Below, in pieces: positions 5,408-64,000 of a stretch of 64,000 bases of DNA; within the stretch, counting starts at the first letter, position 1, and each line of letters starts with the position of its first letter. The stretch comes from an uncultured Candidatus Micrarchaeota archaeon. GTDB taxonomy: Archaea; Micrarchaeota; Micrarchaeia; Burarchaeales; Fermentimicrarchaeaceae. The notes beneath the pieces are model-generated. The model did no database searches. It saw only the letters and a list, made by a program, of their open reading frames with translations, and was not told where the DNA came from. The DNA is taken from assembly GCA_903884505.1 (NCBI GenBank), contig CAISET010000002.1, positions 277,917 to 341,916 on the forward strand, written 5' to 3'. Made by a program: the position numbers and the translations under genes.

Positions 5408-6736
5408 TTAGAGGGCTTTGTCCTGCAAGCATCTCTCTTTGTCCAAAACAAATACGAATTGTTTACCTCTCGACAACTTATGTAAATAACCCCTTTCTGT
5501 TAAGTCAAAAAGATCAGTTCTTGCCGTTTGATAAGTAGTATTATACCGTTCCTTCATCTCATAAATGGTTATTGATTGTTCACTTTTACTCAAACTGATA
5601 ATTAAATCAGCTTGGCGGAAATTCATTTTTGGATTTCGGCGTATTGTTTCAAAGATTCTTTTATTCTCTTCTTTAGTTTTTTCTATATACTTTTCGAATG
5701 AAGTTATTGCAATATCCATTGCGTGCAGATTAAATTTTACAAAGTACGTAACGTCATTATTGTCCGTTTCAGCATATAAATAGGCGCGAGTATACTGCGC
5801 AGGGGCATTATTAATTGCAGTAGATATGGCAACGTATTCCAAATAATCATAATTTTGTGCCAAAAGATACCAATAGAACAGCGCCCTTGCAGTCCGGCCA
5901 TTGCCGTCAAAGAACGGGTGTATCCAACCAATCATATAATGAAGCACCATAGCCTTTACAAACGGATGAAGGTAGTACTCAGTAGACTCGCCATTAACGA
6001 AATTGCAGACCTGTTCCAAAAGCTGGTCAATCTGGCTGTATTCGGGAGGATCGTAAATGATCTGCTGTCTGCCGTCTCTAGAAAAGACCTTAATGTCGTT
6101 TGTTGTCCTGAACGCCCCCTCATATTTCTTATCGTCGAGCGTATCATTTGTGATTCGCTTATGGATTTCTCGAATTAAATCAAATGTCAATTTCTGGTTA
6201 GATTCTACATGCTCCTTGATGTACCTCATAGTAATATAGTTGTTGAGTATCATTTGTTCTGAGCGAGTCCGCGGTTTTCTATTTTCTCTCAGCATTTTTT
6301 TTGCAACCAATCTGGATGTAGATGCACCTTCCAATTGACTCGAAGCTATTGCTTCTTCCATTAATGAGTTTACTAAATATTTTTTTTGTAATTCAACCCC
6401 CATTTTAGCTTCTAAGTCTTTTTCGATTTTCCCAGCTACGCGCATGTCCAGTTCATGAAGTGTTTTTTCAATATTTGGGGTCTGTATATACCGTAGTCTC
6501 AGGCCATTGATGCCAATGGTTCGCGAATCAAAACTTCTAGAGAATTCGATAAATGTCCACAACTTCTTAAGGTCAATGTCCTTGAATTGGTCATTTATTT
6601 TCAATTCATCCCAGTGTAAGTACTCGCTATTGGCGGCATTCAGATACGGCCTAAGTTTGTCAAAGTCCTCGCGTCTCAGCTTTTCGATATGTAGCCCAAC
6701 CGGTGGTTTTTCGGGAATCCTCATAGCAGCACCCAC
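5408..6736 (-). CDS. Fic/DOC family protein (AMPylation-type Fic domain with an in-cis inhibitory motif)
   Basis: Canonical Fic motif HPFFDGNGRTARAL. An SSQLEG inhibitory-helix-like motif lies upstream. The gene sits in an AT-rich island. The ORF-table start is GTG at 6736, with an alternative ATG at 6724. Confidence 0.8.
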   Translation of the reverse strand: MGAAMRIPEKPPVGLHIEKLRREDFDKLRPYLNAANSEYLHWDELKINDQFKDIDLKKLWTFIEFSRSFDSRTIGINGLRLRYIQTPNIEKTLHELDMRVAGKIEKDLEAKMGVELQKKYLVNSLMEEAIASSQLEGASTSRLVAKKMLRENRKPRTRSEQMILNNYITMRYIKEHVESNQKLTFDLIREIHKRITNDTLDDKKYEGAFRTTNDIKVFSRDGRQQIIYDPPEYSQIDQLLEQVCNFVNGESTEYYLHPFVKAMVLHYMIGWIHPFFDGNGRTARALFYWYLLAQNYDYLEYVAISTAINNAPAQYTRAYLYAETDNNDVTYFVKFNLHAMDIAITSFEKYIEKTKEENKRIFETIRRNPKMNFRQADLIISLSKSEQSITIYEMKERYNTTYQTARTDLFDLTERGYLHKLSRGKQFVFVLDKERCLQDKAL

Positions 6737-12479: not shown

Positions 12480-12514
12480 AAGGTTTAAAAATCACCTAAT
12501 GTGAAAGAGACGCT

Positions 12515-13054
12515 ATGAAGCGCGGACAAAGTGCTATTGAGTATCTTACCACCTACGGGTGGGCCATCCTGATTCTGCTCGTCGTCATCGCAGCGCTGTT
12601 CTGGCTGGGCGTGATAAACCCGAAGAGCGTGCTCCAGTCGAGCTGCTTCTTTCCGGCTGACATGAGCTGCCGCGCCTATGTAATGAACACGACCGGTTAC
12701 GTCGCGCTGGACCTCGGGCAGTCCACGGGCCACCCGATAAACGTCACCAACTTCCTCTGCACCTCGCAGAACAACCCAGCCCTGATAACCCCGCTCAACA
12801 ACCCCGTTGTCATCGTGAACGGCGACCACCAGCTCATAACGGACGGCACGCAGCAATGCCTCGACTCAAGTGGCGATATCGCTTCCGGCAGTGCCGGGAA
12901 CCAGTACAAGGGCAAGATATTCATCGAATACGTCGAGCTGGACACGGGCTTCACGCACACCGTCGCAGGGGATGTTTCGCTGAAGTACGAGGAAGTAGCG
13001 ATGCCGACCCCGCAGCCCACGTCAACCCCAACATCGACCCCCGGGCCCGGATGA
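12515..13054 (+). CDS. archaeal type IV pilin-like protein (class III signal peptide, DUF361-like)
   Basis: MKRG|[22 protein letters not shown]: prepilin-peptidase site with Q+1 and E+5 followed by a hydrophobic helix. PT-rich C-terminus. Confidence 0.75.
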   Translation: MKRGQSAIEYLTTYGWAILILLVVIAALFWLGVINPKSVLQSSCFFPADMSCRAYVMNTTGYVALDLGQSTGHPINVTNFLCTSQNNPALITPLNNPVVIVNGDHQLITDGTQQCLDSSGDIASGSAGNQYKGKIFIEYVELDTGFTHTVAGDVSLKYEEVAMPTPQPTSTPTSTPGPG

Positions 13055-13058
13055 GCTG

Positions 13059-14795
13059 GTGTCTTTGGCAGGCTCAAAACGCGGCCAGATCGCCCTCGGA
13101 TCGTCTCCGGCGATAACGCGTGGCCAGACCGCTCTCGAATTCCTGACAACCTACGGCTGGGCAATCTTAGTGCTCCTGGCCGCGCTCTCAGTAATGTATT
13201 ACCTCGGAATCTTCACCCCTCCTTCGCCCAACTCCTGCATCCTTCCCTCAGGTTTCGCATGCCAGGGGTACAAGCTGTCCTCAGGCCCCGGTGGCAGTGG
13301 CGTGCTCACGCTCGACCTCTCGCAGACGACCGGCCACACAATACACATAGTCGGGCTGGCTTGTTCGGCAGAATCCGCGCCCGGCATGACTGCTGTTGAC
13401 GCAACCTTGGACACGGGCCAGAAAGCCAGCTTCCCCTCCCTCAATTGCTCCAATGTCGACGGTTCGCGACCGGCCGCAGGCGATTACTACCGCGGCAAAT
13501 TATACACCAACTACACGGACGAGGACACGGGAATAAGCCACGTCGTGAAGGGCGAACTATCCTACCGCGTCGAGGTAGCCAGTGCAGCCTCGCCCACACC
13601 AAGCCTCTCTCCCAGCCCCTCCCCGACAGTAGGCATATCCCCTAGCCCGTCACCATCGCCCAGCCCAACTCCGACCCCAACACCTACAGAAACCCCGACT
13701 CCCACTCCAACCCCGACACCGGCGCCCACATCCGCCTTCACGATAGACACGACCGCGGACTTCGACGCTGGGGCTGAGAATGGCACCGCAACGATAACCC
13801 AGAACCCTGGAACGACGGCGGCGGATACGCTCGAACTGAAGAACGCCGAGATAACACCTGATGCGAACACTGTGGGTCTCTGGCACATGGACGAGGGCTC
13901 GAGCGGCACAACCGCTGATTCAAGCGGGAATGGGAATACAGGAACGATAAGCGGCGCAACATGGAATTCCTCCGGCATGTTTGGGAACTCGCTGGCGTTT
14001 AATGGGAGTACTGATTATGTAGATGTCGGGAATAATCCAAGCCTTAGTCCTTCTAATGCCCTGACCGTAACAGCATGGGTAAAATATAATGTTATAAATA
14101 GAAACACGGCCATCTATTCAAATAGCGAAATAATAAATATTGCAGTTAGTAATAGTGACAATGCATTTTTTTATCTTACAGACGTGAATTATTGGGTCAT
14201 GCCTGCAGGTGCAATCGGGAACATCAATAACGGGCAATGGCACCAACTAGTTTTTACTTATGACAGTGCAGGCGGTGCAAATAACATGCGTGTCTATGCA
14301 GACGGCATCTTGAAGCAGCAGACAACAGCAACAGGCACGCTGGCACCAACCAGCCACCATACGAAATTAGGCGTCTGGGCTGACGCTTACTATTGGTATG
14401 ATGGCACCATGGACGACGTCGCAATCTACAACCGCTCCCTCTCGGCTGATGAGATAACCGCACGCTACAATTCCGGCCTGAAATACCACACCTCCGGCAA
14501 CTGGACCTCAGCCACCCAAACGATGCCATCCGGCAAGCAGCTCTACGACCTCAGCCTCACGGTTTCAGGAGGTGGCACCTCAGACATAAGCAAGGTTGAG
14601 GTTCTCGACTCATCTGATAATAGCGTCATCACCACATGTTCCACACCCATCACAACGAGCACCGTGCTCACTGCCGCAGACTTCGACAACGGGTTCGGCG
14701 GGACTATGAACAAGAACCTGAAGCTAAGGCTCTACCTCGTTGGCGATGGCGCAAGCAGCATCGCAATTGAGGATATCCAGGGAAGGGCGCAATAG
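13059..14795 (+). CDS. large pilin-like surface protein: class III signal peptide + pilin core + Pro/Thr/Ser linker + LamG (Laminin_G_3 / ConA-like lectin) domain
   Basis: ITRG|[18 protein letters not shown]. (SP)n(TP)n linker. LWHMDEG..DSSGNGNTGT..GATW..GMFGNSLAFNGSTDYVDV......DDVAIYNRSLSADEI is the PF13385 hallmark. Confidence 0.8.
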   Translation: MSLAGSKRGQIALGSSPAITRGQTALEFLTTYGWAILVLLAALSVMYYLGIFTPPSPNSCILPSGFACQGYKLSSGPGGSGVLTLDLSQTTGHTIHIVGLACSAESAPGMTAVDATLDTGQKASFPSLNCSNVDGSRPAAGDYYRGKLYTNYTDEDTGISHVVKGELSYRVEVASAASPTPSLSPSPSPTVGISPSPSPSPSPTPTPTPTETPTPTPTPTPAPTSAFTIDTTADFDAGAENGTATITQNPGTTAADTLELKNAEITPDANTVGLWHMDEGSSGTTADSSGNGNTGTISGATWNSSGMFGNSLAFNGSTDYVDVGNNPSLSPSNALTVTAWVKYNVINRNTAIYSNSEIINIAVSNSDNAFFYLTDVNYWVMPAGAIGNINNGQWHQLVFTYDSAGGANNMRVYADGILKQQTTATGTLAPTSHHTKLGVWADAYYWYDGTMDDVAIYNRSLSADEITARYNSGLKYHTSGNWTSATQTMPSGKQLYDLSLTVSGGGTSDISKVEVLDSSDNSVITTCSTPITTSTVLTAADFDNGFGGTMNKNLKLRLYLVGDGASSIAIEDIQGRAQ

Positions 14796-14819
14796 CCGCC
14801 AAATAACCAAAGAAGAGAT

Positions 14820-17264
14820 GTGATTATGTCCAAGATGCAACGTGCGATGCAAATCAAATCGTCTCCGGCGATAACGCGCGGCCAGACTGCTCTCGAATTC
14901 CTGACAACATATGGCTGGGCAATCTTGGTGCTTCTGGCCGCGCTCTCAGTAATGTATTACCTCGGAATCTTCACCCCTCCTTCGCCCAACTCCTGCATCC
15001 TTCCCTCAGGTTTCGCATGCCAGGGGTACAAGCTGTCCTCAGGTCCCGGCGGCAGCGGCGTCCTAACACTTGACTTCTCACAGACTACCGGCCATACCAT
15101 CCACATAACCGGCCTGGCCTGTTCGGCAGAATCCGCGCCAGGCATGACTGCGGTTGACGCAACCCTGGACACGGGGCAGAAAGCCAGCTTCCCCACCATA
15201 AATTGCTCCAATGCAGACGGTTCGCGACCGGCCGCAGGCGATTACTACCGCGGCAAGATCTACATCAACTACACGGACGAGGACACGGGAATGAGCCATA
15301 TCGTGAAGGGCGAACTATCCTACCGCGTTGAGGTAGCCGGCGCAGCCTCGCCCACACCAAGCCCCTCCCCGACTGTCGGCATATCCCCTAGCCCGTCACC
15401 ATCGCCCAGCCCAACTCCGACCCCAACTCCGACACCCACGCCAACTCCTACGCCCACGCCTACCCCGACACCAGTGCCGAACGGCTGGTTCTTCGGCACG
15501 GTCACCGGTTCCGGGCCTATCGAAGGGGTTAGCGTGAATGCAAGCAACGCGACCGGCTTTTGGGCTGACACCACCAATGCCAGCGGCCAGTATGCGATTT
15601 ATGACCTCGCGCCAGGCCAGTACGACCTGAACGCCAGCATGGCAGGCTATTATGACAATGCTACGACCGCCACCATAACCCCTGGCGCCGGAACAGAGAT
15701 GAACTTCACGCTGCAGGCTATCCCGCCTCCCGCCATATTTTTCGATCTGACGTCGACCGCGGACTTCGACGCTGGGGCTGAGCATGGCACCGCAACAATA
15801 ACCCAGAATCCCGGAACGGCAGCTGCGAACACGCTTGAGCTGAAGAACGCCGAGATAACACCTGATGCAAACACAGTGGGCCTCTGGCACATGGACGAGG
15901 GCACTGGCGTCACAACCGCTGATTCAAGCGGGAACGGAAACAGCGGTATGCTTGGCTCTTCCGTGAATTGGGCTTCCAGCAGCCAAGGTTCGACGGCATC
16001 GGCTACTTCCGTATGGGGAGCTCCCTACCCTGCGTCCAAGACTATCGATGATGTTACCAGCGGACTTGGAGGCGCTTGGGCAGCCGCCGATTACGCGGCG
16101 TACCCAATCAATGTGACAATTGATCTGGGGACTGTGCGAGACATCTACAAAGTCGTTGTTTGGCAGATTGATCTCGCGGACTATCATGTGAAAGACTATC
16201 AGGTTCAATTCTCAACAGACGGTTCGAGCTACACTACTATGGCATCCAATACCTTGCCCGACACAACCGCGTATGCCCAAACCAACACGTTCAGTTCCAC
16301 TCCAACAAGATACATACGAATCTACATTACTTCAGGCTATCACCATTATGCGTATGACTCCGCGGGGTTGGAGGAAATCCAAGCATATTCTGCCCCCAGG
16401 TGGAACTCCAGCGGCATGTTTGGGAACGCGCTGCGCTTTGACGGGGCGGATGATTATGTTGATGCTGGAAATGGGGCCAGTTTGAATATCGTTAACACAG
16501 TTAGTATCGAAGCATGGGTGAAGCCTGCATCAAATACTCAGAATAGTGCAATAGTTTCTAAATGGACAACTGGGTTAGGCACAATCAATTCTTATGCTCT
16601 ATACATCGGGCAAAATGCAGGCAACAACAAATGGGCATTTGCCATAGAACAATCAAATAATACTTATCGGGAACTTTCACCAAGTTCTCCAACTTTTAAT
16701 GCAGGAACATGGTACCATGTCGCTGCAGTGGCAGACGGCTCATACTTGCGACTTTATATAGATGGAATAGATACCGGAACAACAACTTCTTATGACGGAA
16801 CCATCAAAACCACTACTAAAAAACTGCTTATTGGAAAATTGAGAGAAGAAGACAATCTTTATGATTTTGACGGCACCATCGACGACGTCGCCGTCTACGA
16901 CCGCGCCCTCTCAGTAGATGAGATAGCCGCGCTCTACAACTCCGGCCTGAAATACCATACCTCCGGCAACTGGACCTCAGCCACCCAAACGATGCCGTCC
17001 GGCAAGCAGCTCTACGACCTCAGCCTCACGGTTTCAGGAGGTGGCACCTCAGACATAAGCAAGGTTGAGGTTCTCGATTCATCCGACAACAGCGTCATCA
17101 CAACGTGCACCACGCCAATCACAGCGAACACCGTGCTCACCGCTGCAGACTTCGACAACGGGTTCGGCGGGACTATGAACAAGAACCTGAAGCTAAGGCT
17201 CTACCTCGTTGGCGATGGCGCAAGCAGCATCGCAATTGAGGATATCCAGGGAAGGGCGCAATAG
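14820..17264 (+). CDS. large pilin-like surface protein: class III signal peptide + pilin core + PT linker + carboxypeptidase-regulatory-like domain + F5/8 type C (discoidin) domain + LamG domain
   Basis: The N- and C-terminal modules are near-identical to 13059..14795. Inserted domains: [37 protein letters not shown] (CarbopepD_reg-like); [30 protein letters not shown] (discoidin-like); LamG with [15 protein letters not shown]. Confidence 0.8.
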
Positions 17265-17314
17265 CCCCCGAAAAACCTTATAAACTATCAGCAGCCAACC
17301 TTCGCTTAAGGGGT

Positions 17315-17815
17315 GTGATTATGTCCAAAGCACAAAGCGCGATGGAATTCCTGATGACCTACGGCTGGGCGATACTGATAATGCTCACGGTCATCGCAAT
17401 CCTGTTCTACCTGGGCGTCTTCAGCCCGGCAACCGTTTCACCCAACGCATGCGTCCTTCCGGCCGGCTTCTCATGCCACGGCTACAAAGTGACATCCGGA
17501 TCAGGCGACGACGGCCGCCTCTGCCTTATCCTCCTGCAGACGACCGGCCATACAATCAACATAACGAAAATGGCCTGCTCTGACCAAGAGAATCCAGCGC
17601 CGGTTGATATACATCGGCGGCTTTACAACGGCGAAACGTTAGAGATGTCACAGCTCACATGCCTAAAGGCGGACGGTTCCCCTCCCGGAGTCGGAGACTA
17701 CTACCGTGGAACCCTTTACATCAACTATACGGACGAGACAACGAACATAGACCATCAGATAAGCGGGGAGATAGCATACAAGGTCGAGCAGCAGATAGGC
17801 CCCTGCTTCCCATAG
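17315..17815 (+). CDS. archaeal type IV pilin-like protein (class III signal peptide)
   Basis: MIMSKA|QSAMEFLMTYGWAILIML, with the same mature N-terminal consensus as the three upstream genes. Confidence 0.7.
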   Translation: MIMSKAQSAMEFLMTYGWAILIMLTVIAILFYLGVFSPATVSPNACVLPAGFSCHGYKVTSGSGDDGRLCLILLQTTGHTINITKMACSDQENPAPVDIHRRLYNGETLEMSQLTCLKADGSPPGVGDYYRGTLYINYTDETTNIDHQISGEIAYKVEQQIGPCFP

Positions 17816-19300: not shown

Positions 19301-19987
19301 ATGAAGATAGACCTGCACATCCATACCGCAAATTCGCTCGATTCCTGGATAGTCCCGGACAAGCTGCCAGCCATTGCCAAACGGAAGGGGCTTGACGGAA
19401 TCGCAGTCACCGACCATGACACCGCGAGCGCATGGCCCGCAGTTGAGAAGGCTGCAAGAAAGCTGGGAATAGCCGTCATTCGCGGTGAAGAAGTCGGCGT
19501 CAGGCCCGCAGGCAGGCGAGTAGGCGAGATAATCGGGCTTTTCATGAATGAGCCGGTTGACGGAAAAGGAAAGACGTCAGTCGAAGTAATCGACGCCCTC
19601 AAGGCGCAGGGCGCGATAGTGGTCCTTCCCCACCCGTTCGACAAATACAGGAAGATATTCCCGGAGGATGAATTGCGTGAGCTTGCGGTCAAGGTCGATG
19701 CGGTCGAGGTCTTCAACCCCCGCGTCGCCCTCCCGGAGCTCAACCGCAAGGCGAAAGCCTTCGCTGAAGAATTCGGCCTTCCGGAAACCGCCGGGAGCGA
19801 TGCGCACGTCTCATGGGAGGTCGGGAAGGCCTACACCGAGGCGAATGCCAACAGCCCGGAGCAGTTCAGGAAAGCGCTCATCTCGGGGAAAACGAAGGCG
19901 CATGGCACCTACCACCCGTTCTTCACCAGAATCTTCCCGTCAATAGCGAAGCTGAAGAGCAAGCTGCTCGGGAAAAAGCACCGCTAG
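19301..19987 (+). CDS. PHP-domain (polymerase/histidinol phosphatase-like) metal-dependent phosphoesterase
   Basis: MKIDLHIHTANS...GIAVTDHD...LPHPF...GSDAHV are PHP histidine motifs. Confidence 0.7.
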   Translation: MKIDLHIHTANSLDSWIVPDKLPAIAKRKGLDGIAVTDHDTASAWPAVEKAARKLGIAVIRGEEVGVRPAGRRVGEIIGLFMNEPVDGKGKTSVEVIDALKAQGAIVVLPHPFDKYRKIFPEDELRELAVKVDAVEVFNPRVALPELNRKAKAFAEEFGLPETAGSDAHVSWEVGKAYTEANANSPEQFRKALISGKTKAHGTYHPFFTRIFPSIAKLKSKLLGKKHR

Positions 19988-20622
19988 CACGGGACCAGTT
20001 CCGTAGTCTCGCCCGTTATCTGCGGCTCGTTCAATGCGCAGGTCTCAGGCGTAATCCACGCCCTTCCCATATAGGTTACTATGCCGCACACATTCCCCTG
20101 CTGGTAGGTGAAGCCGATTGTCGGGCTCTGCCTCAAGTCAACGGTTATCTTCGCCTTCACTTCTTCTTCGCTTAGTGGCGTGCACGGGGCAATCCCGGTG
20201 CACCAGGTCGGGTGGTAGTGCGTGAACAGCTGGTTCCTGACATTCTGTTCGCATGGATTAGCGGATGAGGGAGCTGGCGTAACCGCAGGCGTGGCGGTGT
20301 GCGTCGCAGCAGGCGAAGGGGTTGCGTTAGGGGTTGCAGTCGGAACAGGCGTCGGAGTAGGCTGGAACTGCGAGAGGTCTATCCTGCTGCCATTAGCATC
20401 AGCACAATAGGGCGGCCCGCGGCAGCAGTTCACGAATTCAGGGCCCGAAGACGCCCAGTGCCCTCCGGCCCCGCTGCACGCGTCATTCATCCAAGGCGCC
20501 GGGCTGATATACTGGGGGCAGTTGCTGTAGCCCAGCCCAAGGCAGAAATCCGTCCCCAGGCATCCGGGCAGCAGAAGCGAAGAGAGCACGGCCAAGGCCG
20601 CAACGAAGATTGTGCGTTCCAT
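19984..20622 (-). CDS. secreted cysteine-rich protein with a Pro/Thr linker
   Basis: N-terminal signal peptide (MERTIFVAALAVLSSLLLPGC). Many Cys. PTPTPVPTATPNATP linker. Confidence 0.5.
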   Translation of the reverse strand: MERTIFVAALAVLSSLLLPGCLGTDFCLGLGYSNCPQYISPAPWMNDACSGAGGHWASSGPEFVNCCRGPPYCADANGSRIDLSQFQPTPTPVPTATPNATPSPAATHTATPAVTPAPSSANPCEQNVRNQLFTHYHPTWCTGIAPCTPLSEEEVKAKITVDLRQSPTIGFTYQQGNVCGIVTYMGRAWITPETCALNEPQITGETTELVPC

Positions 20623-20631
20623 GGTGAGCAG

Positions 20632-21624
20632 TTAGCCCGCCTGCCTTAAAATTTCTTTCCCTTTCCTCGTAAGGCCGTAGAACACGAACTTCCTGCCCGC
20701 CTCCTCCTTCTTCTCGACAAATCCCGCGTCCATCAGCCTGTCAAGATGCTCGACCACGGTCGCCTTGCTCTTGCCCACCCGAGTGCTGAGGTCCGTGGGC
20801 GTCAAATCCCTCGCCTGCAGCTCGCGCATGAGCCCGAGCCGCGTATCCGAGGAAAGCGCCCGGTGCATCTCCGCATCCGGAATCTCAAACTCGACTCCCT
20901 GCCTCTTCGTAATTACCACATACGCGCCGAACGCCGCAAGCACCAGGATTACTGCGCCGCCGGCCGCATATGGCCTCGCAGTATCCGCCCAGCCGGCAAT
21001 CCCGCTGCTTTCATGGCCGCTTCCCTTCTCCGCAGCGCCAGCTGTCCCCTCCCCGGCGCCTGCCGTCCCCAAACAAAACGTCCCCTGGCAAGACGGTGCC
21101 CATTCACCGGGCGAAGGCATCGGCGTCGGAGCTGGTTGCCCGGATGGAAGGTCGTTGATGAACGGCAAATACGCGCCCGTTGACGCCCCAGTTGCCGCGT
21201 CCGGGCATGCGATTCCAGGGGCGGGATATTCCTTCGCGCCCTGAGCAGTGAAGACGTACCCTGCGAATCCTTCCCTGTATGCGACCGCGGTGTATTCGTC
21301 GCACGTGGAGAGATTGGCGTTTGTTGCGGTCGCATCTGCGAGGAAAAGTGAATACTCCTCGGGGGTCATCTTCGTCACAGAATAGCCGTGCGCGATGAAC
21401 TCCCAGACCGTTGCCTTCTCCTCATCCGTTAGGTTCAGGCCAGTCCAGTTCTCTCCGTTATTGTAAGCCATAACCGAGTCAAAATCAGTGACGTTGGCCA
21501 CGGGCTGGCTGCTCACAAAGAAAAGCTTGGTTTCCCCAACCTCAACGGATGGCGCTTCCACCCAGGCGTGCGCGATTCCCGCGAACAGCAGGGCAAATCC
21601 CAGCGCGACGAGTTCCGGCCTCAT
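20632..21624 (-). CDS. membrane-anchored winged-helix transcription regulator with an extracytoplasmic N-terminal domain
   Basis: Order of domains: signal peptide, about 200-aa ectodomain, PT/Gly linker, a single TM (AGGAVILVLAAFGAYVVI), then a C-terminal wHTH (SDTRLGLMRELQARDLTPTDLSTRVGKSKATVVEHLDRLMDAGFV). Confidence 0.55.
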   Translation of the reverse strand: MRPELVALGFALLFAGIAHAWVEAPSVEVGETKLFFVSSQPVANVTDFDSVMAYNNGENWTGLNLTDEEKATVWEFIAHGYSVTKMTPEEYSLFLADATATNANLSTCDEYTAVAYREGFAGYVFTAQGAKEYPAPGIACPDAATGASTGAYLPFINDLPSGQPAPTPMPSPGEWAPSCQGTFCLGTAGAGEGTAGAAEKGSGHESSGIAGWADTARPYAAGGAVILVLAAFGAYVVITKRQGVEFEIPDAEMHRALSSDTRLGLMRELQARDLTPTDLSTRVGKSKATVVEHLDRLMDAGFVEKKEEAGRKFVFYGLTRKGKEILRQAG

Positions 21625-25165: not shown

Positions 25166-25298
25166 GCCGTGGTAGCTCAGCCTGGGAGAGCATTCGAATC
25201 TTTTCTTGGTTTCCAAGAAAAGGTGATGAAGCTGAAGGATTCCCAGACGAGGGGAGCCAGAAACCGAAGGGTCGCAGGTTCAAATCCTGCCCACGGCA
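25166..25298 (+). tRNA. intron-containing tRNA (about 133 nt; anticodon uncertain, possibly CUU/Lys). Intron of about 60 nt in the anticodon loop with a 10-bp hairpin and a GUGAUGA box-C-like motif
   Basis: Acceptor GCCGUGG/CCACGGC+A. D-arm GCUCAGCCUGGGAGAGC. T-arm GCAGGUUCAAAUCCUGC. The two halves are separated by an insert. Confidence 0.7.
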
Positions 25299-25372
25299 CT
25301 GACCCTTTTCCCAATCGCCCGGGTTCGCAGCCCGGCGATATGGTAAAAGCGTCAACGGAAAACGTCATAAAT

Positions 25373-25524
25373 GCGATCGTAGTCTAGCCTGGTAGGACTC
25401 GGCCTTGCCAAGGCCGTGGCCCGGGTTCAAATCCGAACCGCGGAGGGGGACACCCCCTCCTCAGTTTGAGGGTCCTCCGGATCCTCCCCCGTTCGACGGG
25501 GCGGTGAAACTCCCGGCGGTCGCA
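25373..25524 (+). tRNA. tRNA-Gly(GCC) with an ~85-nt intron in the T-arm (between the T-loop and the 3' T-stem)
   Basis: GCGAUCG-UA-GUCUAGCCUGGUAGGAC-U-CGGCC-UUGCCAA-GGCCG-UGGC-CCGGG-UUCAAAU, then [insert with three hairpins], then CCCGG-CGGUCGC-A. Confidence 0.7.
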
Positions 25525-25532
25525 TGTTTTCT

Positions 25533-25689
25533 GCGGTCGTAGTCTAGCCTGGTAGGACTTAGGCCCTCCAATGGCCCTTTTCCCACCGCATATCCGGCTC
25601 CGCCGGGTTGCGCATGGTAAAAGCGCCAGCGGAAAATCCGCTGGCGAAGAGGAAAGCCTATAACCCGGGTTCAAATCCCGGCGGCCGCA
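25533..25689 (+). tRNA. intron-containing tRNA, most likely tRNA-Gly(UCC) with an ~80-nt intron at 37/38. The alternative reading Trp(CCA) is not excluded
   Basis: The 5' half is near-identical to the other Gly tRNAs. UAGGC/GCCUA stem pairs perfectly across the insert. Intact T-arm CCGGGUUCAAAUCCCGG and acceptor GCGGUCG/CGGCCGC+A. Confidence 0.65.
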
Positions 25690-60201: not shown

Positions 60202-62235
60202 CTACTTTTTCGCAACCCACGCGGCACCGATTCCGGCGAACAGCAGCGCGAATCCAGTTGGGCATATCCCTCCGCCTTGGCCGGGAGTTGCCGTTGCGGT
60301 AGGCGCAGGCGTCGCGGTCGCGGCCGCAGTTGGCGCAGGAGTCAGCGTCGGCACCGGAGTCGATGTGGGCGCAGGTGTCGCAGTCGCATTTCCCCCAGGC
60401 GTCGGGCTTCCCATCGGGCTTGCTGTCGGAGAAGCCGCTGGCGTGGGCGAAACCCCGGGCGACGGCGAAACTGCAGGCGTGGGGCTTGGCTGCGCGCACG
60501 CGCCTATGCTGAAGAACTTGACCTGCTGCGGGTATCCGCTCTTGTCAGCCACCGCTTTGTAGCTGCCCGCGCTTGAGGGCGTGAAGTTGGCCCTCCCGTT
60601 CGCGTCGCCGGTCAGGTTCGCAACCAAATCCCAGTTCAGCGAAGTGTTGTAGATGAACACCCCGACGCCCGCCCCGGGAATCGGGTTGCCGGACTGGTCC
60701 TCCACGCTCAAATTAATCCCCTCTTGCGTGCAGTTCCCGGCCACCGAAATCTTCAGCGCCCTAGTTGCATTCGGGCCGAACCCGTTGTCCTGCAGGTAAT
60801 AAATATCATAATTCCCCTGGAAGTTGTCCTCGAAAACCGCATGCACCCTGTTCCTGCCATCCAGCATGAAGTCATGGGAATACGAGTTCGAGTTGGTGTT
60901 GCTCACATCCCGCGCACCCCTCCAGGAGGAGTTCCACCCATTCCAATAAATCTCGCTGTTCCCGGGCGTGTCGTCCCCCCAGAGGACATGGAGGTAACCG
61001 TTCCCGTCCGCTCTTATCGCAGGCAGGTAGGAGAATCCCGTCGTGTTAGAGATGTCCGTCCAGTTGGAGAAGCTCACCCCGCCGTCATTGCTCCCAGAAT
61101 AAAGTATCTCATAGTTCCCGGGCGCGCCGTCCATCCAGGCCACATGCAGCTTATCGGACGCATCAACCTCGATTCTCGGCCAGTTCGAGTCCTGGTCCGG
61201 CGTGTTCGAAATGTCCTGCGAATTATGCGCCGCCCCGTTCTTCACGTTCGCATACCAAACATCCCACTGCGCGGGCAAGCTGCCGCTCGTGCCGTTCGCC
61301 TCCCTCCATGCCACATGCGCCACATCGAGCGAATCCGCATCCACGTCCGGCTTCTCCGAGCCTCCGATGGTGTTCGAGACATCAACAAGGTTGCCGCCTG
61401 TGCTGCGCGCATACCAAATCTCCATGCCCCTGTCCCACACCACGTGGAACCCGCCATTCTTGCTCGGCGCAAGCCTCGGGTGGTTCCCGCCGGCCGCATT
61501 ATCCAGCCACCTGGGGGCTGCCCACGGCTGCGGCACTCCAACATACTCCATGAACGACGCCATGGTCGCGCCATCCACGAACGCGAGCCCAGGCTGGCCG
61601 TTCTTGTCAATCGCGAGCTCGTAATAGATACTGGGCATCCCGCCAGCCACCGTGCTGGCCAGCCCGACGTCCGTTGCCTGCGCAGCGGCATCCCACGTCC
61701 TTCCGCGGTTTATCGAGCGCGAAAACCAGGGCGTATACTGCCATGCCTGCCCATGAACCTGCTCAGCCCAGACGACATACACGACCCCCTGCGAATCAAC
61801 AACTATCCTTGGCTGGATAGAATCATTGGTCGTGTTCGAAATGTCAATCGGCGCATTCCAGCTTCCGCCGAAATTGTTCGTGTATAATATCTCCCAGTTC
61901 CTCCCGCTCGGGCAATCGGCGAGCGGCGGCTCGGGCTCGCCAGCCGGGGGTGGCGTTGGCGAAGGCGTCACGCTCTGCGACGGCGTGGGAGTTGGCGTCG
62001 GGGTGGGAGTTGTTGTCGTGGCCGGCGTTTCAGTTGGCGATGGGCGCGGCTGGGGAAACACGCACTCCTGCCAGACGGCATGCACCACCCCGTTCGAGTC
62101 AACATAGACTCTCGGGTTTATCGAATTGCTCCCGGTATTCGATATGTCTACTGGCGCGCCGAAAGCAAGAACAAGCGAAGCTGCAAGAATCAGGGCTAGC
62201 CCTGCTCTAAATTCCCACGAGGCCATGCTAACCAC
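60202..62235 (-). CDS. cell-surface protein with repeated BNR/sialidase-like beta-propeller blades, a carboxypeptidase-regulatory-like domain, PT linker and a PGF-CTERM-like C-terminal TM anchor
   Basis: Signal peptide. At least six repeats of the pattern DISNT...P(R/A)I.VD..G..H.VW.D/E. C-terminus PTGFALLFAGIGAAWVAKK. Confidence 0.6.
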   Translation of the reverse strand: MVSMASWEFRAGLALILAASLVLAFGAPVDISNTGSNSINPRVYVDSNGVVHAVWQECVFPQPRPSPTETPATTTTPTPTPTPTPSQSVTPSPTPPPAGEPEPPLADCPSGRNWEILYTNNFGGSWNAPIDISNTTNDSIQPRIVVDSQGVVYVVWAEQVHGQAWQYTPWFSRSINRGRTWDAAAQATDVGLASTVAGGMPSIYYELAIDKNGQPGLAFVDGATMASFMEYVGVPQPWAAPRWLDNAAGGNHPRLAPSKNGGFHVVWDRGMEIWYARSTGGNLVDVSNTIGGSEKPDVDADSLDVAHVAWREANGTSGSLPAQWDVWYANVKNGAAHNSQDISNTPDQDSNWPRIEVDASDKLHVAWMDGAPGNYEILYSGSNDGGVSFSNWTDISNTTGFSYLPAIRADGNGYLHVLWGDDTPGNSEIYWNGWNSSWRGARDVSNTNSNSYSHDFMLDGRNRVHAVFEDNFQGNYDIYYLQDNGFGPNATRALKISVAGNCTQEGINLSVEDQSGNPIPGAGVGVFIYNTSLNWDLVANLTGDANGRANFTPSSAGSYKAVADKSGYPQQVKFFSIGACAQPSPTPAVSPSPGVSPTPAASPTASPMGSPTPGGNATATPAPTSTPVPTLTPAPTAAATATPAPTATATPGQGGGICPTGFALLFAGIGAAWVAKK

Positions 62236-63400: not shown

Positions 63401-63460
63401 AATTGTCCGTTAGTAATTTTGGGCTACTAATATAAATATGCCACCTCCAACATTTACCTC

Positions 63461-63580
63461 GATGAATTTGCCCCTATCTGTGCTATCAGGCAAAATATCT
63501 CGCAATCCTGCGGATTGCTCAATGAATTTGCCCCTATGTGCGCTGTCAGGCAAAATATTTCGCAGTCCTGCGGACTGCTC
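63461..63580 (+). repeat. tandem direct repeat, 60-bp unit x2 (about 88% identical), plus a partial third copy that contains the start codon of the downstream gene
   Basis: gatgaatttgcccctatctgtgctatcaggcaaaatatctcgcaatcctgcggattgctc / aatgaatttgcccctatgtgcgctgtcaggcaaaatatttcgcagtcctgcggactgctc. Each unit begins with an in-frame ATG. Confidence 0.8.
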
Positions 63581-63581
63581 A

Positions 63582-64000
63582 ATGAAATTCATAATTTTCA
63601 CGGCCCTGCTGCTTCTGATGGCCTTTGTGGCAGTGGCATCGGCCGACAACGTCACCGGGTTCGATGACTACTCCCTCACGGTCACGGTCACCGCCAACCC
63701 GGACGGGACCGCGCACGTGGACGAGGAGGTGCAGCTCATCGCCTCCCCGAACGTCTTCGACCTCTACAAGAACAGCCTGCGCTCGACCCGCCTCACCATA
63801 TCGGACTGGCAGAACACCACGGGCTCAAAGAACCTGCGCTACCACATCCTCGCCACCCCGATGAATACCCGCGTGTTCCCCCACCCTCTCCAGCCCTTCA
63901 CCTACGTGGACAAGTCCGTCGCCATCATCACGGTCGAATACGACACCTCGGCTCCCGTCTTCAACGTGACCGCGGCAGGCCCGCGCAAGACGCTCTACGC
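63582..64000 (+). CDS. secreted hypothetical protein (partial; continues beyond the window)
   Basis: ATG at 63582. Signal peptide MKFIIFTALLLLMAFVAVASA. Open frame runs to the window end. An in-frame upstream ATG at 63438 is possible. Confidence 0.5.
   Translation, partial: MKFIIFTALLLLMAFVAVASADNVTGFDDYSLTVTVTANPDGTAHVDEEVQLIASPNVFDLYKNSLRSTRLTISDWQNTTGSKNLRYHILATPMNTRVFPHPLQPFTYVDKSVAIITVEYDTSAPVFNVTAAGPRKTLY

Follow-up and report, generated by a model that had tools for sequence, protein, structure and literature searches.

Four adjacent genes for predicted archaeal type IV pilins, two with lectin-like modules, in a Candidatus Micrarchaeota archaeon

RESULTS

Four pilin-like genes

We analyzed 64,000 nucleotides (nt) of an uncultured Candidatus Micrarchaeota archaeon (positions 277,917 to 341,916 of contig CAISET010000002.1, assembly GCA_903884505.1). 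This whole stretch is referred to as the window, and coordinates are positions within it unless another locus is named. A reading of the sequence by a model without database searches (the sequence-only reading) had proposed a pilin and adhesin locus at 12515-17815. We found that four open reading frames (ORFs) of one protein family, which we call A through D, lie there on the plus strand, with intergenic spacings of 4, 24, and 50 nt in the window's ORF list. As that reading had described, two of the genes are small (166-179 amino acids [aa]) and two are large (578 and 814 aa). The features of the cluster are as follows.

12483..12490, plus strand: TTTAAAAA, an archaeal TATA-box-like element read from the sequence, about 25 nt 5' of the gene A ATG
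12515..13054, plus strand: gene A, encoding a small member of the pilin family (179 aa) with the leader MKRG, a predicted cut before Q5 (codon 12527), and a hydrophobic helix; the remainder is a 4-Cys β-sandwich core and then a short Pro/Thr tail
13059..14795, plus strand: gene B, predicted modular pilin, 578 aa; the predicted cleavage site precedes Q23 (codon 13125), the pilin core extends to about nt 13580, and the Pro/Thr/Ser linker covers about 13581-13736; next come an "ADFDAG" segment, the LamG domain, and a domain of about 110 aa at the C terminus
14820..17264, plus strand: gene C, predicted modular pilin, 814 aa; the predicted cleavage site precedes Q22 (codon 14883), the pilin core extends to about nt 15338, and the Pro/Thr/Ser linker covers about 15339-15485
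17277..17314, plus strand: putative CTTATAAA (TATA-like) and GGGGTG (Shine-Dalgarno-like) elements 5' of gene D, read from the sequence
17315..17815, plus strand: gene D, small pilin-family protein, 166-aa ORF (GTG-started); leader MSKA, predicted cleavage before Q (codon 17333)

The element at 12483..12490 is a possible promoter for all four genes. The product of gene A is identical to the database protein P0002, and the product of gene B is 99% identical to P0121 (576 aa) over the 497 residues that were compared via P0391. Gene C likely starts at ATG 14826, or else at ATG 14847, as in the database call (805 aa). The likely start of gene D is ATG 17321, which gives 164 aa, as called in public assemblies; in the GTG-started ORF, the predicted cleavage is before Q7.

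In all four proteins, a hydrophobic stretch comes after the motif [KR][GA]-Q-[ST]-A-[ILM]-E-[YF]-L-x-T-Y-G-W-A-I-L, so the claim of four consecutive plus-strand genes with a shared prepilin-type signal was borne out. A six-frame scan of the window's ORFs of at least 60 aa, with a FlaFind-like pattern and a hydrophobicity filter, identified A through D and no others; these hits come from that pattern rather than from the FlaFind program.

The sequence-only reading also placed the signal at the very start of all four genes. This is correct for A and D, whose leaders are 4 aa (MKRG and MSKA), but the leaders of B and C are about 20 aa. Each of the longer leaders contains a degenerate second copy of the motif upstream of an intact TRG|QTALEF site: KRGQIAL in B (13077-13100) and MSKMQRAM in C (14826-14850; compare MSKAQSAM in D). 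From these residues, the leaders of B and C look like a duplicated signal region.

In an alignment of A through D, the first 150-170 residues or so are common to all four and include 38 invariant columns, four of which are cysteines; the string Q-x-A-x-E-x-L-x-T-Y-G-W-A-I-L is also among the invariant positions. Nothing in Pfam or NCBIfam matched this shared module, and the full products of genes A and D had no matches at all in either database. The module has the features that are expected of archaeal pilins: a short basic leader, a [KR][GA] cleavage motif, and a hydrophobic segment of about 20 residues. An AlphaFold 2 (AF2) model of D (predicted local distance difference test [pLDDT] of 92.5) has a 30-residue helix and a β-sandwich, which is the long N-terminal α-helix and β-rich globular domain of archaeal type IV pilins; the 4-Cys core is predicted to be an immunoglobulin (Ig)-like β-sandwich.

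The N termini do not fall into either of two known motif classes. The DUF361 (PF04021) motif, that of EppA-processed pilins, is defined as QXSXEXXXL, with Q at +1 (PMC2910488). In A through D, Q+1 and E+5 fit this motif, but +3 is alanine and +9 is threonine, so we do not assign them to DUF361. The bacterial methylation motif of IPR012902 (G-F/M-T/S-L-x-E) is absent as well: as judged by reading the N termini by eye, rather than from InterPro, they run ...RGQ[ST]A[IL]E[YF]L, a sequence of the archaeal type.

Related proteins and pilus operons across DPANN

A profile of the shared module matched 4,134 clusters in a word-indexed database search and, in an exhaustive HMMER scan, 9,175 representatives at 50% identity, of which 5,452 have E ≤ 1e-10 and 240 have E ≤ 1e-30. 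No precomputed Pfam domain or informative name was attached to the family among the matches listed. The named sources are metagenome-assembled genomes (MAGs) of Micrarchaeota, Marsarchaeota, Woesearchaeota, Nanoarchaeota, and other DPANN archaea.

The signal is well conserved across these relatives. Among 109 motif-bearing proteins, every one (109 of 109) has G/A at -1, Q at +1, and also E at +5, and 97 have K/R at -2. Their called leaders are mostly 4-6 aa, although leaders of 15-25 aa, as in B and C, were also called in about 18 of the 109. Exactly four cysteines are present in 102 of 120 proteins.

To look for pilus machinery, we searched the ORFs of 80 genome loci around relatives with one T2SSE-like ATPase that had been found beside a pilin. 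A homologous ATPase lies in the fetched flank at 18 of the 80 loci, and 17 of these are on the same strand as the pilin. At 14 loci, we found a colinear arrangement of the ATPase, T2SSF, T2SSF, and then one to three family pilins; a conserved gene with a helix-turn-helix (HTH) domain often comes first, and the start of the pilins is mostly no more than about 100 nt from the second platform gene. For the representative loci that were scanned, the T2SSE and T2SSF assignments were confirmed by Pfam. At three Micrarchaeota or Marsarchaeota loci, the ATPase is immediately beside family pilins. Two platform genes are a hallmark of archaeal clade 1 or system 1 (Epd-like) pili (PMC4858521), and system 1 was reported in some DPANN by a 2026 census (preprint 10.64898/2026.04.22.720090). 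The association with a T2SSE ATPase and a T2SSF/TadC platform is thus found for the family, although not at this locus, and the colinear gene order indicates that the family is the pilin of a DPANN type IV pilus. Along with the invariant -1, +1, and +5 positions, these operons agree with the identification of A through D as archaeal type IV pilins in the sequence-only reading.

Could the N-terminal module instead be an ordinary transmembrane anchor on an Ig-like stalk of envelope proteins, with a coincidental resemblance to class III signals? This would make it hard to explain why -1 G/A, +1 Q, and +5 E are invariant in 109 of 109 relatives, with a basic residue at -2, or why family genes are repeatedly colinear with, and immediately behind, a T2SSE gene and two T2SSF genes. 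We consider a plain anchor to be highly improbable.

We also noticed that a conserved gene directly 5' of the T2SSE ATPase (L052 4691-5857, L073 1359-2516, and 9 other loci) encodes a protein of about 385 aa whose N terminus weakly matches winged-helix domains. It may be a dedicated regulator or an assembly factor of the DPANN pilus operons.

Lectin-like modules of B and C

Both large proteins contain a Pro/Thr/Ser linker after the pilin core, as the sequence-only reading had claimed; of its roughly 50 residues, nearly all are Pro, Thr, or Ser. The domains it had named beyond the linker, which are Laminin_G_3 in both proteins and CarboxypepD_reg and F5/8 type C in the larger one, all scored above Pfam's gathering scores (given second below).

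14001..14456, plus strand: Laminin_G_3 (ConA-like lectin fold) of B, residues 315-466; Pfam E = 1.6e-23, 83.9 versus 27.6 bits
15495..15716, plus strand: CarboxypepD_reg (transthyretin-like β-sandwich) of C, residues 226-299; Pfam E = 1.1e-11, 45.4 versus 32.3 bits
15996..16343, plus strand: F5_F8_type_C (discoidin, CBM32-like) of C, residues 393-508; Pfam E = 1.4e-15, 58 versus 28.2 bits
16440..16928, plus strand: main part of Laminin_G_3 of C, residues 541-703; Pfam E = 2.8e-32, 112.4 versus 27.6 bits
16929..17261, plus strand: C-terminal domain of C, about 110 aa; no Pfam match, β-rich in the AF2 model (pLDDT 63-80)

The first LamG strands of B (LWHMDEG...SSGNGN) begin upstream of the Pfam match, at nt 13878. 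The C-terminal domain of C is nearly identical to its counterpart in B (14457-14792) by BLASTP, and the underlying DNA repeat (D2) is 90% identical.

The discoidin domain of C is inserted within LamG. Two landmarks of the LamG domain, SSGNGN and WNSSGMFGN, are 14 residues apart in B but 159 residues apart in C (at residues 369 and 528), and the F5/8 type C domain (residues 393-508) falls between the separated landmarks. In the AF2 model of C, pLDDT is 76-96 on either side of this insert and the model is unreliable within it. That model covers residues 222-814: modeling of full-length C was abandoned because a composite alignment of pilin and LamG homologs misplaced most of the short pilins. 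Similarly, a homolog search with full-length C was swamped by the Pro/Thr linker (14 matches) and was repeated without the linker.

Long fusions make up about 40% of the family representatives with the best scores (about 62 of the top 150 combine the N-terminal pilin module with a length of over 300 aa), so B and C are typical "modular pilins." The modules on these long representatives include NosD/β-helix (23), CarboxypepD_reg (10), DUF2341 (5), LamG (3), SdrD_B (3), and assorted propellers. Fusions of 430-890 aa also occur at 10 of the 80 genome loci of relatives. F5/8 type C was in none of the other long fusions among the best 150, so by this comparison of sequences the nested discoidin domain is the single peculiar feature of C.

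The main part of LamG in C was modeled with pLDDT of 85-96, and the model and Foldseek both confirm the LamG fold. In Foldseek, the LamG model resembled domains of clostridial neurotoxins that are lectin-like and bind receptors (E = 7e-12), domain 4 of AbnA, and the LamG domain of PAPP-A. The discoidin domain of C matched the sequences of CBM32 modules from NagH and NagJ of Clostridium perfringens in the PDB (E = 4e-5).

These similarities also bear on whether the C-terminal modules might be surface-displayed enzymes or polysaccharide-processing domains (a ConA-like glucanase with a carbohydrate-binding module [CBM]) that remodel glycans, instead of adhesins. PF13385 belongs to the ConA-like lectin/glucanase superfamily, CBM32 modules such as those of NagH and NagJ accompany glycoside hydrolases, and the commonest partners in the family are β-helix modules, which are NosD- or pectate-lyase-like. 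However, no glycoside hydrolase family was found by Pfam at E ≤ 1, the best structural matches are LamG domains that bind receptors or carbohydrates (those of neurotoxin Hc, domain 4 of AbnA, and PAPP-A), and the nearest relatives by sequence are surface proteins with several LamG domains and without catalytic domains. An enzymatic role is therefore very unlikely.

Those nearest relatives of the LamG module (P0136-P0253) are proteins of about 700 aa with three tandem LamG domains, from Patescibacteria, which are also called the candidate phyla radiation (CPR); most of them have ordinary signal peptides. We considered whether they might be bacterial pilins, but a motif scan found none, and P0184 and P0189 alone look pilin-like by eye. 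LamG modules may have been exchanged between DPANN and CPR, which are two groups of ultrasmall episymbionts.

Duplication and strain variation of B and C

From the sequences, B and C are tandem paralogs that arose by tandem duplication. At the DNA level, they are about 90% identical in three parts: the pilin core, the segment that precedes LamG, and roughly the final 300 nt. Across the aligned part of LamG, the proteins are just 58% identical (BLASTP). A diverged LamG core between flanks of about 90% identity suggests that B and C have two different ligand specificities.

Gene C varies among strains. In other assemblies of the same population (L001 68-1189 and L003 1-573), a B-type C terminus lies directly 5' of gene D, so gene C is missing there. 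Also, the tail of B has C-type residues in some strains (P0121 compared to P0391). The absence of C and the C-type residues in B tails both suggest recombination between the B and C repeats of about 90% identity.

In the closest MAG (L005), one paralog is a pilin with a β-helix. About 3 kb downstream (L005 6462-10431), there are four consecutive small class III-like genes, with N termini of RKGQASVELL, RRGQQGVELM, RKGQVWSYD, and RKGIVLTLD, followed by a protein of over 630 aa. This large protein has a different pilin-like N terminus (RKGFIFTLLVVV...) but the same ADFDAG-LamG-C-terminal module, at 47% identity to B. To judge by these sequences, the four small genes and the large protein look like a set of minor pilins with its adhesin. 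That one binding module is found on two different pilin-type carriers argues that the module is meant for display on pili.

At a syntenic locus from another Micrarchaeon (L006), a single short pilin precedes the same CDP-alcohol transferase and PHP genes. The four-gene cluster thus looks like a lineage-specific expansion.

Comparison with known systems

The sequence-only reading held that this architecture was not characterized experimentally. That is true for archaea. In bacteria, the principle is established: PilB and PilC of Streptococcus sanguinis are pilins with grafted von Willebrand factor A (vWA) and ConA-like lectin modules (PMC8179133, PMC9934059). PilC binds defined glycans and has been modeled at the pilus tip (PMC9934059), and in bacterial modular pilins, PF13385 and PF13620 rank among the most frequent modules (PMC8179133). 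Computational work has also pointed to adhesive-module pilins in archaeal system 1 pili (PMC4858521; preprint 10.64898/2026.04.22.720090). We did not find the term "modular pilin" applied to archaeal proteins in the literature that we searched.

B and C have the modular type IV pilin architecture as defined by Raynaud et al. (2021), with domains above the Pfam thresholds. As in PilB and PilC, an N-terminal pilin module is joined to a module that is not specific to pili, and both the PF13385 and the PF13620 types are present. The S. sanguinis proteins differ in having the IPR012902 motif at the N terminus, the bacterial pilin fold, and a short linker, whereas B and C have the archaeal Q+1/E+5 signal, a 4-Cys β-sandwich core (as predicted for D), and a linker of about 50 aa that is rich in Pro, Thr, and Ser. 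C differs further in that the discoidin domain is nested in LamG.

Among archaeal filaments, the system 1 or clade 1 (Epd) pili of Methanococcus maripaludis and its relatives are encoded with an ATPase and two platform (TadC-like) genes, like the related DPANN operons, and Epd pilins, which are of the DUF361 type, have Q at +1, as do A through D. However, the major Epd pilin is about 70 aa and lacks a globular domain, whereas the core of our family is about 120 aa with a predicted β-sandwich. Also unlike the Epd system, genes A through D lie away from the machinery, and they do not reach the threshold of PF04021.

TafC of the haloarchaeal Tat-fimbriae (Tafi) has an N-terminal part like that of the major subunit and a C-terminal laminin G-like domain; there is about 1 TafC per 100 major subunits, and it has been modeled at the tip (PMC11821415). 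B and C share with TafC the combination of an archaeal filament subunit-like domain with LamG, and they have weak NCBIfam matches to TafC via LamG. But Tafi subunits use Tat signals and donor-strand exchange instead of class III signals and helix packing. We rejected B and C as members of the TafC family (NF052521): they scored 43.1 and 68.2 bits versus a cutoff of 410 bits, the matches were to the LamG region only, and there is no twin-arginine motif in their N termini.

The bindosome of Sulfolobales comprises ligand-binding proteins that have a pilin-type signal and depend on an assembly system like that of type IV pili (T4P). These proteins differ from the A-D family in several ways: they bind solutes for uptake, have no pilin-like globular core, are part of subsystem 4I in the Thermoproteota, and are unrelated to the family in sequence.

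DISCUSSION

Pilins or surface lectins?

In our view, A through D are probably paralogs that each provide a subunit of an archaeal type IV pilus; the pilus would be of the Epd/Tad-like "system 1" kind, which occurs in DPANN. The pilin reading is well supported because of the helix and β-sandwich in the AlphaFold model and the T2SSE-T2SSF-T2SSF linkage in 14 related loci.

Several results weigh against this interpretation. First, the AF2 model of D had no significant Foldseek match in the PDB. Second, PF04021 (DUF361), at a relaxed threshold, matched B only, at E = 0.17 and 12.4 bits, below the cutoff of 23.7 bits. Third, as the sequence-only reading had said, neither assembly ATPase nor prepilin peptidase turned up in the window: no homologs of the T2SSE ATPase or the T2SSF platform are among the ORFs of the 64 kb, and the Pfam annotations of the window's genes, which cover most genes rather than every ORF, include no Peptidase_A24. 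A hunt for A24 peptidases by regular expression and hydrophobicity, which is not a conclusive method, found none in the window or in 84 loci. Fourth, the neighborhoods of two solitary paralogs (P0054 and P0097) contain housekeeping genes only. Fifth, the CarboxypepD_reg and discoidin parts of the model of C have pLDDT below 50, because homologs to align were lacking. Finally, a ConA-like fold is not by itself proof of lectin activity.

The assembly machinery must be elsewhere, since the window has no homolog of the ATPase or the platform; stand-alone pilin genes are common in archaea (PMC4858521). The label "EppA/PibD substrate type," which the sequence-only reading gave to the signals, holds insofar as Q+1 and E+5 fit the DUF361 motif (PMC2910488), but the PF04021 score is below threshold and no peptidase was found.

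B and C might instead be surface lectins whose class III signal serves for processing and for anchoring in the membrane or in a pseudopilus, so that they form a short, "bindosome-like" structure with A and D as structural partners. Class III signals are also found on substrate-binding proteins, proteases, and redox proteins, according to the FlaFind census (PMC2910488); the Sulfolobales bindosome is a recognized subsystem of the T4P type (PMC4858521; preprint 10.64898/2026.04.22.720090); assembly genes are absent nearby in the window; and bulky modules of 400-640 aa would be hard to pack along a shaft. On the other hand, the pilin module of B and C keeps all of the invariant positions of the family, including the four cysteines, and shares 49% identity with D. 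The T2SSE-T2SSF-T2SSF operons of relatives contain no pilin-like genes other than short family members. And bacterial pilins whose modules are about as large are incorporated into pili (PMC8179133). Overall, we consider a bindosome-like structure to be rather unlikely.

A model for the pilus

If A through D are pilus subunits, then a prepilin peptidase of the EppA or PibD type, encoded elsewhere, would cut them before the glutamine after they are inserted into the membrane. ATPase and platform machinery resembling system 1 would then polymerize A, D, or other short paralogs via their helices, and B and C would enter the same filament through the conserved pilin module. Because of their bulk, B and C would most likely sit at the tip or be sparse along the filament, that is, as tip or minor pilins. 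Their linkers would hold the lectin modules off the shaft, where LamG and the CBM32-like domain could bind glycans on a host cell, a neighbor, or a surface. We infer cleavage by the peptidase, incorporation into a pilus, and glycan binding for these proteins from the evidence above. B and C probably help the cell stick to sugars on a host or on a surface.

Other features of the window

Just downstream of the pilin cluster, on the minus strand, are two genes that form a pair. The first (19984-20622) encodes a Cys-rich protein of 212 aa that contains a Pro/Thr linker and a lipobox-like LLLPGC. The second (20632-21624) encodes a protein of 330 aa with an N-terminal signal or extracellular part, a transmembrane segment, and a C-terminal HTH_5/MarR-like domain; it may be a membrane-anchored regulator. 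Further away, a 677-aa protein (60202-62235, minus strand) has an N-terminal signal-like segment and weak matches to CarboxypepD_reg and Big_1, and is probably another surface protein. A Fic/DOC-domain protein with a C-terminal DeoR-like HTH is encoded at 5408-6736 (minus strand).

A tRNA cluster lies at 25166-25689 (plus strand). Two tRNA matches in Rfam extend over 133 and 157 nt, which means that introns are probably present in both. ARAGORN reported tRNA-Gly(GCC) at 25372-25443 and, at 25600-25688, a tRNA-Phe whose AAA anticodon is odd. At 63458-63586, within an ORF at the edge of the window, there is a 60-nt tandem repeat (2.2 copies, 89% identity).

Implications for DPANN archaea

Type IV pilins with adhesive modules are a known kind of system, and we do not propose a new kind of machine. 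This family is absent from Pfam and NCBIfam, and predicted glycan-binding modules are common in it. The locus links a very large family of "hypothetical" proteins (9,175 representatives) to type IV pilus operons, and the family is ready to be turned into a hidden Markov model (HMM) for annotation. If our predictions are correct, the principle of the modular pilin, which was proven in bacteria, extends to archaea.

DPANN are mostly uncultured episymbionts whose recognition of, and attachment to, their hosts is little understood. Pili-like connections between DPANN and their hosts have been imaged (PMC7906910), and B and C are concrete candidates for the adhesins that attach DPANN cells to their hosts.

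More tentatively, the pilin module might be a general display scaffold of DPANN. This broader idea seems doubtful to us, yet it is worth stating: thousands of variants would show interchangeable β-helix, LamG, CBM32, DUF2341, and propeller modules on type IV pili and would thereby set which host can be attached to, and loci like that of B and C would be recombination cassettes. If so, then the B and C cassettes, with the gain and loss of C and the swapping of tails, would allow populations to switch or diversify the specificity of their adhesins. The situation would also resemble that of pili in CPR bacteria, the group with the LamG proteins most closely related to the modules of B and C.

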